Assembly (NCBI GenBank): GCA_038046385.1
Contig: JBBSWH010000015.1
Location: forward strand, 1 to 15,616
DNA from: Nanobdellota archaeon
GTDB taxonomy: Archaea; Nanobdellota; Nanobdellia; Woesearchaeales; GW2011-AR4
Reading direction: 5' to 3'
Length of the DNA: 15,616 nucleotides
Positions 14,283-15,616 of this stretch are shown here, piece by piece. Below the pieces are notes generated by a model. The model was not told the origin of the DNA, ran no database searches, and saw only the letters and a program-made list of their open reading frames with translations. Position 1 is the first letter of the stretch. The number at the start of each line of letters is the position of its first letter. The translations under genes and the position numbers were made by a program.

Positions 14283-15224
14283 TTAGTAAGTGTTTGTCAA
14301 AACAACATTTCCATCGCTGTTTTTTATAGTAAGTGTGTCTCCGTCATTGTTCCAGATACACCCCCTTGCATTGCCCCAGTAAACCTTTGAAGAATCGCTT
14401 GTTCCTTGACCGCTGTAAAGCTTGATTCTTCCGCTTCCATCCAGCGCAAATCCAGTAAATGTGTATGTTTTTGATGACGCGTCGCTTACCTTCCATCCGT
14501 CTAAGTTGCAGGAATTGCTGCATTTGTTCCTAAATTCTACAAATTCTTCGTCAGTGTTGCATTCATTTTCCGGAGGATCATAATTAAACTCAAGGATTTC
14601 AATGCAGTCATCGCATGGTCCGCTGCTTGACTGTGTCTGCGCTTCGTTTTGCACATTGTTCACTTGCACTTCGCTATCTGTACATTCATCATTGACGCAC
14701 GAATATTTGCATTTTTCAACAAGGCCCCATCCGGCACCGTTTGGAAGGCAAACTTTAAGCTCGCTGCCAAAACAGTTCATTGCAGGAGGCGTGCAAACTT
14801 TTTCGCTGCATTTTCCGTCCTTGCATGACTGCGGGCATTTTTCAATATCTTTCCATTTGCAGTCTTCTGTTTTGTAGCCTCTGTATTTTTCGTCAATGCA
14901 TTCCCAGCCTTCACCGCATCCTTTTTCCTTTACTATTTCGGCTGGAACACATTTTTTGCTGCAGGCTGCGTCAGAATAAGGTTCTGTTTTCCACTTTCCT
15001 GCTTCAAGGTCGCATTCATTGTATGCTTCGTTTCCGTTGCATTTTTCACTTGAAATGCAACAATTGCTGTCGCAAAATTTTCCATCTGGGTAAGCGCATG
15101 CCCTGTATATTTTTGCGGCAACCTCCCCAGTTATTTCAGAAACATCTTCAGTGTTTTTGGAGCATGCAGGGAGCAGAGCTATCAATAATAAGATGCAAAA
15201 TGCAATTGTATTTTTCCACCCCAT
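14283..15224 (-). CDS. Lipoprotein with Cys-rich repeats and C-terminal lamin tail domain
   Basis: Lipobox LPAC; C-x3-C-x4-C repeats; EFVEFRN...LDGWKVSD...LYSGQG...WNNDGDT-L LTD signature; GGGGG RBS supports ATG 15224, while the GTG at 15245 lies inside the tRNA 3' exon. Confidence 0.85.
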   Translation of the reverse strand: MGWKNTIAFCILLLIALLPACSKNTEDVSEITGEVAAKIYRACAYPDGKFCDSNCCISSEKCNGNEAYNECDLEAGKWKTEPYSDAACSKKCVPAEIVKEKGCGEGWECIDEKYRGYKTEDCKWKDIEKCPQSCKDGKCSEKVCTPPAMNCFGSELKVCLPNGAGWGLVEKCKYSCVNDECTDSEVQVNNVQNEAQTQSSSGPCDDCIEILEFNYDPPENECNTDEEFVEFRNKCSNSCNLDGWKVSDASSKTYTFTGFALDGSGRIKLYSGQGTSDSSKVYWGNARGCIWNNDGDTLTIKNSDGNVVLTNTY

Positions 15225-15239
15225 GTTTACCCCCATTAA

Positions 15240-15474
15240 CGCCACTGCTCGGATTACTCAAAAACGCCGGCGCCCGGATTTGAACCGAGAGATCCTTTCG
15301 GAAAGCGGTTTTCGAGACCGCCGCAATGCCGGATTATGCGACGCCGGCATAGCGTTTTTGAGTTCCCAAAAATCATTGATTTTTGTGATGAACCGAGAGA
15401 TCCTTTCGGAAAGCGGTTCGCCCTGATAAATAACTGTTCGAGACCGCCGCAATGCCGGATTATGCGACAGTGGC
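15240..15474 (-). tRNA. Outer tRNA-Ser(CGA) in three exons (15474-15437, 15418-15389, 15255-15240) with an 18-nt intron at 37/38 and a 133-nt T-loop insertion at 57/58
   Basis: Joined exons give an 84-nt cloverleaf: acceptor GCCACTG/CAGTGGC + G73, anticodon arm GCGGT-CTCGAAA-ACCGC, long variable arm, T arm CTCGG-TTCAAAT-CCGAG. Confidence 0.75.
15265..15348 (-). tRNA. Inner, intronless tRNA-Ser(CGA); CCA not encoded
   Basis: GCCGGCG/CGCCGGC acceptor + G73, anticodon CGA, variable arm TCC-GAAA-GGA, T arm CTCGG-TTCAAAT-CCGGG; 84 nt. Confidence 0.95.
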
Positions 15475-15498: not shown

Positions 15499-15513
15499 TA
15501 TTTAAGCTTTTTT
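15499..15513 (-). promoter_or_regulatory. BRE+TATA promoter of the outer tRNA
   Basis: Minus AAAAAAG-CTTAAATA ending 24 nt before G1 at 15474. Confidence 0.65.
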
Positions 15514-15517
15514 AGAA

Positions 15518-15565
15518 TTAATGGTCAGAGCAGTCCCATTTGAAGCCGCAGTTGGGGCAGATTAT
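15518..15565 (-). pseudogene. 3' end of a small CPxCG zinc-finger gene, apparently interrupted
   Basis: Translates IICPNCGFKWDCSDH*; in-frame TAA at 15583-15581 inside the palindromic element. Confidence 0.55.
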
Positions 15566-15613
15566 TGTAAATTCATGGGTTTAAAACCCCATGCTTTAGC
15601 ATGAATTTACAAT
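15564..15613. repeat. 50-bp palindromic element (MITE/REP-like or intron-like)
   Basis: Perfect 14-bp terminal inverted repeat ATTGTAAATTCATG/CATGAATTTACAAT with internal hairpins CATGGG/CCCATG and CATGCT/AGCATG. Confidence 0.7.
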
Positions 15614-15616
15614 CCC

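Follow-up and report, generated by a model that had tools for sequence, protein, structure and literature searches.

A complete tRNA-Ser gene enclosed by the T-loop of a second tRNA-Ser gene in a woesearchaeal genome

Interrupted tRNA genes, whether intron-bearing, split, or permuted, are central to the debate on tRNA gene evolution. The locus described here adds a question to this debate: when a tRNA gene is interrupted by a whole second tRNA gene, does one precursor give rise to both tRNAs, or does only the enclosed one function? The window, i.e., the whole stretch of DNA analysed, is the entire contig C15 (15,616 nt) of genome G000, a 1.28-Mb assembly of 19 contigs with 38% G+C that is 85% complete and presumably derives from a DPANN archaeon of the Woesearchaeales. 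On its minus strand, at 15474–15240, a complete tRNA-Ser(CGA) is enclosed by the T-loop of a second tRNA-Ser(CGA). This nesting had been claimed in the original prediction, and the sequence, ARAGORN, and Rfam bear it out at the same coordinates.

The outer gene consists of 15474–15389 and 15255–15240 and is broken after T-loop base 57 by a 133-nt insert (15388–15256). Its former piece has GCCACTG at the 5′ end and GGTTCA at the 3′ end, and the latter reads AATCCGAGCAGTGGCG. The insert is arranged in the order TCA, a 19-nt hairpin, GGA, a 12-nt helix strand, TAT, the inner tRNA, and the complementary helix strand (Table 1). The leading 3 nt of this last strand are shared with the 3′ end of the inner tRNA, and its T-run could have an additional role as a terminator.

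Table 1. Features of the nested tRNA-Ser locus on contig C15 and examples of A/T-rich hairpin sites elsewhere in G000.
Feature	Position	Strand	Basis
Outer promoter: A-rich stretch and TATA-like CTTAAATA, about −32 from the outer 5′ end	15499..15513	−	sequence
Outer exon 1a: acceptor 5′ strand GCCACTG, D-arm, anticodon stem 5′ strand, loop through base 37	15437..15474	−	
18-nt intron of the outer gene, canonical 37/38 position	15419..15436	−	strict BHB test
Outer exon 1b: anticodon stem 3′ strand, long variable arm, T-stem 5′ CTCGG, T-loop TTCA (ends at base 57)	15389..15418	−	
Start of the T-loop insert: TCA, hairpin 1 CAAAAATCAATGATTTTTG (15385–15367), GGA	15364..15388	−	
Closing helix (helix 2), 5′ strand ACTCAAAAACGC	15352..15363	−	12 contiguous pairs with 15267–15256
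Inner tRNA-Ser(CGA), complete, intron-less, acceptor GCCGGCG/CGCCGGC	15265..15348	−	ARAGORN, Rfam
Closing helix, 3′ strand GCGTTTTTGAGT	15256..15267	−	pairing with the 5′ strand
Outer exon 2: T-loop AAT, T-stem 3′ CCGAG, acceptor 3′ CAGTGGC, discriminator G	15240..15255	−	
A/T-rich hairpin sites, examples	C6:5848–5914, C3:17150–17219, C9:17565–17623, C13:9253–9306		

Standard tRNA finders detect only the inner gene at this locus: Rfam scores it with 47.9 bits against RF00005 (cut-off 29), and ARAGORN also calls tRNA-Ser(CGA), while the outer gene is missed by both. When the outer exons were joined in silico with both inserts taken out, ARAGORN returned a tRNA-Ser(cga) of 84 nt with all stems paired and a long variable arm of the Ser type. 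The original prediction had expected such an 84-nt tRNA from joining the two outer pieces and had proposed a finder run as a check; the tRNA-Ser(CGA) is obtained, but 15474–15389 is itself 86 nt long, and the 18-nt intron (15436–15419) has to be removed as well. ARAGORN’s own placement of this intron is 2 nt off and gives Ala-cgc, whereas cutting at 37/38 gives Ser-cga. The acceptor halves pair 7/7 outer with outer and 7/7 inner with inner, and cross-pairing between outer and inner halves leaves 2–3 mismatches; the acceptor stems are thus orthogonal with full compensation, as had been predicted. Bases 8–57 are the same in the outer exons and the inner gene of G000, which indicates gene conversion between the two.

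The claim that only the outer gene has a TATA box also holds for boxes at the proper position. A 7/8 match to TTTAWAWA lies at −32 of the outer gene (promoter-like sequence AAAAAAGCTTAAATA), picked by eye from a scan output that listed an equal-scoring match at −42, whereas the best match of the inner gene is 6/8 at −14. Matches of at least 7/8 at −29 to −37 precede 17 of the 23 other ARAGORN tRNAs of G000. The 235-nt precursor folds with −87.9 kcal/mol (z = −4.1), a stability equalled by 0 of 200 shuffled sequences, and the minimum free energy structure contains the outer acceptor stem, hairpin 1, the closing helix, and the inner acceptor stem.

The locus is flanked by two further genes and a repeat. 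An ORF with a lamin-tail domain (14283–15245, minus strand), secreted-looking, overlaps the end of outer exon 2 if read from its listed GTG start; by eye, translation more probably begins at an ATG ~20 nt downstream. On the other side, at 15518–15580 (minus strand), just the last ~20 codons (THEFTIICPNCGFKWDCSDH and the stop) of a zinc-ribbon gene are open, preceded by stops; in relatives, the zinc-ribbon gene stands upstream of this tRNA locus. The contig ends at 15550–15616 in a palindromic repeat with arms of ~13 nt around GGGTTTAAAACCCC. Several unrelated contigs of the metagenome run X1 match 15561–15614, and a near-identical copy of the palindrome adjoins a two-hairpin module (see below) in G214, a genome of another family. 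The palindrome is a dispersed repeat that probably broke the assembly, and the zinc-ribbon gene of the window seems to be cut by it.

With 142 nt between the feature and the contig end, and with identical stretches of 50 nt present twice, an assembly artefact from near-identical tRNA repeats might be suspected. However, single metagenome contigs (Logan) from other runs cross both junctions with 0 differences, covering 15188–15438 (run X3, study P2) and 15173–15434 (X5, P3), which answers the call of the original prediction for spanning sequence. Two contigs of run X1 (P1), 15100–15340 and 15313–15466, also show 0 differences. These runs are public groundwater metagenomes, one of which may be the source sample of the window. 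A search for RNA runs with this stretch found none. The same nesting was also found in other genomes and metagenomes, and an artefact is scarcely credible.

Relatives were searched with the locus sequence, with patterns, and in metagenomes. As proposed when the locus was first noted, related genomes do contain the same arrangement: nesting recurs, and the closing helix covaries. Nine nested loci, the window included, are distributed over four families of the order and metagenome contigs; they involve Ser-CGA, Ser-TGA, and Arg-TCG genes and three intron positions, and the anticodon is equal inside and outside in all nine. T-loop nests like that of the window occur in G032, which belongs to another family and has Ser-TGA in Ser-TGA, in G006, G018, and G015 from the window’s genus, and in the metagenome contig L043. 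In G243 and L036, an inner Ser-TGA is located just 5′ of the T-stem, with closing helices of 14 and 12 bp, and in G486 an inner Arg-TCG sits in the D-loop; the outer genes of these three also hold a tRNA-less copy of the same T-loop insert. The closing helices have 12, 13, 14, 13, and 13 contiguous pairs with differing sequences, and 11/13 in the decayed G015. The outer acceptor halves are 130–250 nt apart, yet they are paired 7/7 in 6/6 T-loop nests, and cross-pairing with the inner halves gives 2–3 mismatches. All 15 Ser genes tested fold as tRNA-Ser once the inserts are removed in silico, including the outer genes of G000, G006, G018, L043, and G032, and both the outer and inner Arg-TCG genes of G486 fold after the same treatment. 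Between G018 and L043, the entire unit is 95–100% identical, exons and introns alike.

The exact T-loop pattern is rare, occurring in 3 of 401 genomes of the order sample and 3 of 43 of the genus; in family f9, G032 alone has it among four genomes. In the phylum sample, a pattern scan found matches in 38 of 401 genomes, compared with 16 matches in a backwards control, and only those in G307, G486, G513, G243, and G631 were true modules by eye; the G631 module is the same as that in L036. Among 12 metagenome stretches, four were tRNA-related (L036, L041, L043, and L047), and the other eight were discarded as chance matches. Within G000, flank complementarity around 27 tRNAs gave no nested tRNA besides that of the window.

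Comparison within the genus shows how the partners change. Synteny of the locus extends to several members of the genus: a small gene with the ending CPNCGFKWDCSDH precedes it (relatives assessed by eye). In G013, G003, and G001, the GCCAAGG-type gene is un-nested, whereas in G006, G018, L043, and G015 this type lies outside and a GCCACTG/GCCACCG type inside, and hairpin 1 and the closing helix are homologous across these four, i.e., they represent one common nest. The outer gene of G000 corresponds in type to the inner gene of G006, G018, and G015, and the upstream gene end is the same. Between the outer genes of G006 and G018, 12 of 85 positions are changed. Stems contain 10 of these, and four of the five changed pairs are paired in both; G006 contains no second intron-less gene with the outer’s anticodon arm to copy from. 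The G018 outer gene differs from its un-nested G013 orthologue at only 1 of 84 bases, while the coding DNA beside it shows 75.6% identity over 217 nt. Judging from these alignments, the intact outer genes evolve like working tRNAs.

Loss has affected either partner. In G015, the outer 5′ exon is without the anticodon, variable, and T arms, next to an intact inner gene; G018 shows the reverse, an intact outer gene around an inner gene that is short of ~41 nt in its 3′ half in comparison with L043 (G018 is a 62%-complete MAG, so this deletion could be an assembly error). In G011, a gene resembling the inner one is preceded by a promoter of its own, and the outer 3′ exon persists behind it as a decayed copy. 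Decay of the outer exons in relatives was to count against the original prediction, and the outcome is divided: they are intact in G006, G018, L043, and G032 but decayed in G015 and G011. Because a nested pair is redundant, either partner can be lost over time. Taken together, the tRNA-like evolution of the outer genes, the reciprocal loss, the orthogonal acceptor stems, and the covarying helices argue that the outer tRNAs are made.

The two interruptions of the outer gene have different junctions. In the strict hBHBh′ test, the splice sites of a bulge-helix-bulge (BHB) lie in two bulges of 3 nt separated by 4 bp, and an exon–exon helix h flanks the motif. The 18-nt intron at 37/38 has h 4/4 and H 3/4 and passes; the same level is reached by 13 of the 19 ARAGORN-predicted introns of G000, which were allowed shifts of ±4. 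Introns are common in this genome, as 19 of its 24 ARAGORN tRNAs contain one. By contrast, none of nine sequences passes at the T-loop junction, with h 0/4 in eight of them and 1/4 in one. A canonical BHB at shifted T-loop sites (18 × 19 boundary pairs) was also considered and rejected because the best candidates either leave the T-loop with an incorrect length or depend on wobble pairs. The RNAalifold consensus of seven tRNA-less T-loop modules is a three-way junction made of the T-stem and two hairpins that abut without a linker, and the splice sites coincide exactly with the outer feet of both hairpins. Since the junction is of this kind and not a bulge-helix-bulge, removal of the T-loop insert is uncertain.

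Among the seven modules, 10 of the 21 pairs of the two hairpins show compensatory change. The foot of hairpin 1 is invariant in its U:A and C:G pairs, as is that of hairpin 2 in A:U, C:G, and U:A. The motif TC..GAACT is kept in all relatives, while the stem of hairpin 1 covaries. The conserved GAACT in the module centre has alternative partners, namely, the two intron ends or the exon GGTTC (52–56). By eye, its pairing with the exon forms a correct 5′ half of a BHB, with the helix GGTT/AACT, a bulge of C56 and A57 followed across the splice site by U, and then hairpin 1; no matching half was found by eye for the 3′ site of the insert. A canonical BHB does fit, also by eye, the T-loop introns at 59/60 in the relatives G019 and G001 and on contig C6 of G000. 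The C6 gene (L002; 173697–173774, plus strand) is a Ser-like class II tRNA gene whose anticodon loop, TTGATAC, gives GAT by position; its T-arm intron fits the 59/60 BHB, and a copy of its own anticodon arm lies upstream. It is of the same odd kind as the tRNA-like gene on C5 described below.

The two-hairpin module is not restricted to nests. A covariance model, R1, built from the seven tRNA-less T-loop modules, has matches in 47 of 151 genomes of the order sample, with at most 17 per genome. Eight are in G000: that in the window (15328–15397, minus strand) with 39.3 bits and an E-value of 5e-7, and seven more. Of 15 matches inspected, nine are intergenic with their own closing helices of unrelated sequence, and four are T-loop modules in a 3′ fragment after a complete tRNA (G134, G069, G169, and G132). 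Loci L047, L054, and L057 share this layout of a complete tRNA and then a 3′ fragment with a T-loop module. One match is an anticodon-loop intron of a tRNA-Thr in G199, with no adjacent copy, whose 3′ arm is able to pair loop bases 32–35 as a canonical BHB helix by eye, and one lies in the T-loop of the tRNA-like gene on C5 of G000. T-loop modules are nearly always beside a complete tRNA with the same anticodon, the exceptions being L041 and the C5 gene. The latter (~67,990–68,230, minus strand) has a Ser-like class II body, the acceptor strand GCCGCGG, discriminator G, and an 84-nt T-loop insert with the two-hairpin module. With the insert removed in silico, ARAGORN reads it as tRNA-Leu(aag) with an A–C mismatch in the anticodon stem, and a copy of its anticodon arm lies ~50 nt upstream.

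An exact scan of G000 for TC..GAACT..AGT gave 13 matches compared with 32 in a reversed-sequence control, and the copy on C9 is the only convincing one. It has the ends TC..GGGAACT..AGT/AATC, with the slash at the junction, like the T-loop insert, and is a near-identical tRNA-less unit; it may be a relic of a tRNA 3′ part. A/T-rich palindromic hairpins (CAAAAATCnnnGATTTTTG) are scattered in the intergenic DNA of G000, either single or as two-hairpin units closed by a third helix (Table 1). One layout is found after a complete tRNA at L047, L054 (G307), L057 (G513), L081 (G134), and L085 (G132). Its first part comprises a trailer, a short spacer, and an inverted part-copy of the T-arm that pairs with the next T-stem/TTCA; its second part comprises the two-hairpin module and the 3′ end of the tRNA, after which the trailer (5–28 nt) recurs in identical form. 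This arrangement of a complete tRNA plus a fragment looks like a repeated rearrangement product. A Y1 transposase domain of the IS200/IS605 or REP-associated type is encoded in G000 (C10:41904–42236, plus strand; 53 bits) and twice in G006, and it is absent from all three of G032, G243, and G486 (94–99% complete). It is a possible mobiliser of the hairpin repeats.

The enzymes that processing would need are encoded in G000. RNase P RNA (121 bits, cut-off 84) and RNase Z (334 bits) are present, the splicing endonuclease EndA is a single match of 200 aa with 118 bits, and RtcB is found in five of five nest-bearing genomes tested, G000 among them. As G000 is only 85% complete, a second EndA subunit may be missing from the assembly. 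The EndA gene and the RNase Z gene (369-aa ORF) are divergent neighbours with overlapping upstream regions (L048; C6:70931–74191); within L048, EndA occupies 1186–1788 and RNase Z 216–1325 on the minus strand.

On this basis, a pathway can be proposed. Transcription would start at the sole promoter, upstream of the outer gene, and give a precursor of ~235 nt in which both genes are presumably co-transcribed. The precursor would fold into the outer acceptor stem, the outer T-stem, and the 12-bp helix around the folded inner tRNA-Ser(CGA), which RNase P and RNase Z would then release. As with the halves of a split tRNA, base pairing in their own stems and in the closing helix would keep the outer parts together. 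The remainder of the T-loop insert and the 18-nt intron would be cut out and the ends joined by RtcB, and the end product would be a second tRNA-Ser(CGA) with a different acceptor stem.

That one precursor yields both tRNAs, the main suggestion of the original prediction, appears to us somewhat better supported by the genomic data than not. Nesting, its recurrence, the presence of the enzymes, and the occurrence of a module of this kind as an anticodon-loop intron in G199 stand on its side; the lack of a strict bulge-helix-bulge at the T-loop junction in 9/9, the nature of the insert as a dispersed repeat, the outer decay in some lineages, and the single 200-aa EndA match stand against it. The competing explanation is that only the inner tRNA is functional: a two-hairpin element with a replacement tRNA of the same anticodon would have landed in the T-loop of a resident gene, whose remains now serve as promoter, 125-nt leader, and trailer and are on the way to decay. 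The absence of a BHB, the repeat-type insert, the constant redundant copy, and the outer decay keep this explanation alive. An equal anticodon in 9/9 nests is what would be expected if the insert must complement the gene it broke, and the association of modules with redundant copies is the pattern expected of a disruptive insertion tolerated only there. The decayed outer gene of G015, the relic of the outer 3′ exon after the inner-like gene with its own promoter in G011, and seven loci with a complete tRNA plus a 3′ fragment containing the module fit it as well. Gene conversion between the two genes of G000 also means that outer exon 1 could look intact without selection. Against it, every outer stem is kept across species-level divergence with changes compensated, the outer gene of G018 is intact where the inner one is broken, the outer gene has a normal BHB intron, and its acceptor strands are complementary despite their wide separation. 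We regard a functional inner tRNA alone as rather unlikely.

Both explanations are compatible with a mobile origin at the DNA level, which is plausible, if a little short of an even chance. The modules would be small mobile or recombinogenic palindromic elements that enter hairpin loops (T-arm, D-arm, and anticodon arm), the closing helix would be the inverted-repeat pair of an element that picked up a tRNA, and cycles of insertion and decay would turn over tRNA genes. Such an origin is suggested by the intergenic copies of unrelated sequence with their own closing helices and by the near-identical tRNA-less unit on C9. It also agrees with cassette similarity, since the G000 cassette resembles that of G032, a member of another family, more closely (81% over 182 nt) than that of G006, a member of the same genus (76%). 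A further point in agreement is that the outer type of G000 is the inner type of G006, G018, and G015, where the locus follows the same gene end. The Y1 transposase of G000 and G006 would suit it, but the domain is found in 0/3 of G032, G243, and G486, and the inserts show no target-site duplication and no conserved termini beyond TC..AGT. Archaeal integrative elements target tRNA genes, so the nest could also be imagined as the remnant of a site-specific integration of a virus or plasmid with duplication of the att site. Indeed, the tRNA 3′ end and 5–28 nt of trailer are duplicated at L047, L057, G132, and G134. In the window, however, the 3′ piece of 16 nt is complementary to the 5′ strand of the outer gene, not to the inner gene, the 133-nt insert has no direct repeat at its ends, and 0/9 ORFs scanned contain an integrase domain. 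A simple att-site duplication, already argued against in the original prediction, is thus a poor fit, and such a remnant is very improbable.

If the two-tRNA pathway and the mobile origin are combined, a more far-reaching and frankly speculative proposal emerges, which we consider unlikely as a whole. Woesearchaeales would possess a class of non-BHB tRNA introns in the form of a mobile module: two hairpins abut, and a GAACT guide in the centre pairs with the ends of the module. This element would enter the loops of tRNA arms and could carry a whole tRNA in one hairpin; such precursors would give two tRNAs, the outer one by split-tRNA joining in cis. Cycles of nesting and loss would replace tRNA genes, and separation of the outer parts in the genome would lead to split tRNA genes of the Nanoarchaeum type.

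Several known systems resemble the nest in part. Split (trans-spliced) tRNA genes were reportedly described by Randau in 2005 in Nanoarchaeum equitans, and they also occur in some Crenarchaeota. Such genes are also treated in PMC3218864. As in split tRNAs, tRNA parts are brought together in the nests by a 12–14-bp helix from sequences beside the break, the host belongs to the same phylum as N. equitans, and the outer parts would be physically split halves once RNase P and RNase Z have removed the inner tRNA. Split tRNA genes are encoded at separate loci, each half with a promoter of its own; in the window’s nest, both parts fit into 235 nt behind one positioned TATA-like box and probably lie in one transcript; in addition, the break here is in the T-loop (57/58), its junction is without a BHB, and a whole tRNA lies between the parts. 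Archaeal tRNAs with multiple or non-canonical BHB introns are said to have been described by Sugahara and Fujishima. Archaeal tRNA introns are reviewed in PMC4033280 and PMC4090602, as far as their accessible text goes. As with these introns, removal of the insert restores the cloverleaf, and the outer genes carry ordinary BHB introns too; unlike them, the insert is at 57/58, forms a three-way junction of two abutting hairpins, and contains a whole tRNA.

Other precedents concern RNAs within longer precursors. The tRNA-Trp intron of Euryarchaeota contains a C/D box RNA, and the proposed pathway would likewise produce a tRNA and a second functional RNA from the intron of one precursor; yet the passenger here is a tRNA with the same anticodon that would be released by RNase P and RNase Z and not as an excised intron. 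In archaeal rRNA operons, a tRNA is located between processing stems and is similarly enclosed by long helices in a longer precursor, but the enclosing RNA in the nest is another tRNA, and its stems are without a BHB. The Caldiarchaeum case reportedly involves a 1.8-kb recombinase-bearing element. For this archaeon, a model of tRNA gene disruption by mobile elements is outlined in PMC3293823. As in this model, tRNA fragments and introns would arise together by DNA rearrangement, but the insert here is 133 nt long and carries a tRNA.

In a full-text literature search, we came across no account of a tRNA gene that lies within a tRNA intron. The sole match for “intron-encoded tRNA”, set aside, was a paper on trypanosome tRNA-Sec, to go by its accessible part. 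In the accessible text of PMC4033280, a nested tRNA is not described and the word “nested” occurs 0 times, and the accessible text of a Nanobdellota preprint (10.64898/2026.05.13.725050) does not describe a tRNA inside a tRNA intron. The same part of this preprint reports “missing tRNAs” for these archaea. Standard finders give 24 (ARAGORN, 19 with introns) or 21 (Rfam) tRNA genes in G000, and many are probably hidden by multiple or unusual inserts. Since the finders see the inner gene alone and just 21–24 tRNAs in this genome, the “missing tRNAs” may partly be hidden nested genes.

To our knowledge, no intermediate between intron-bearing and split tRNA genes has been available so far. A tRNA gene that encloses another tRNA and whose outer parts are joined by a long helix is a candidate for such an intermediate, and it is found in the phylum of Nanoarchaeum. 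If the outer gene is indeed spliced, its junction would represent a type of substrate that is undescribed for the archaeal splicing endonuclease.
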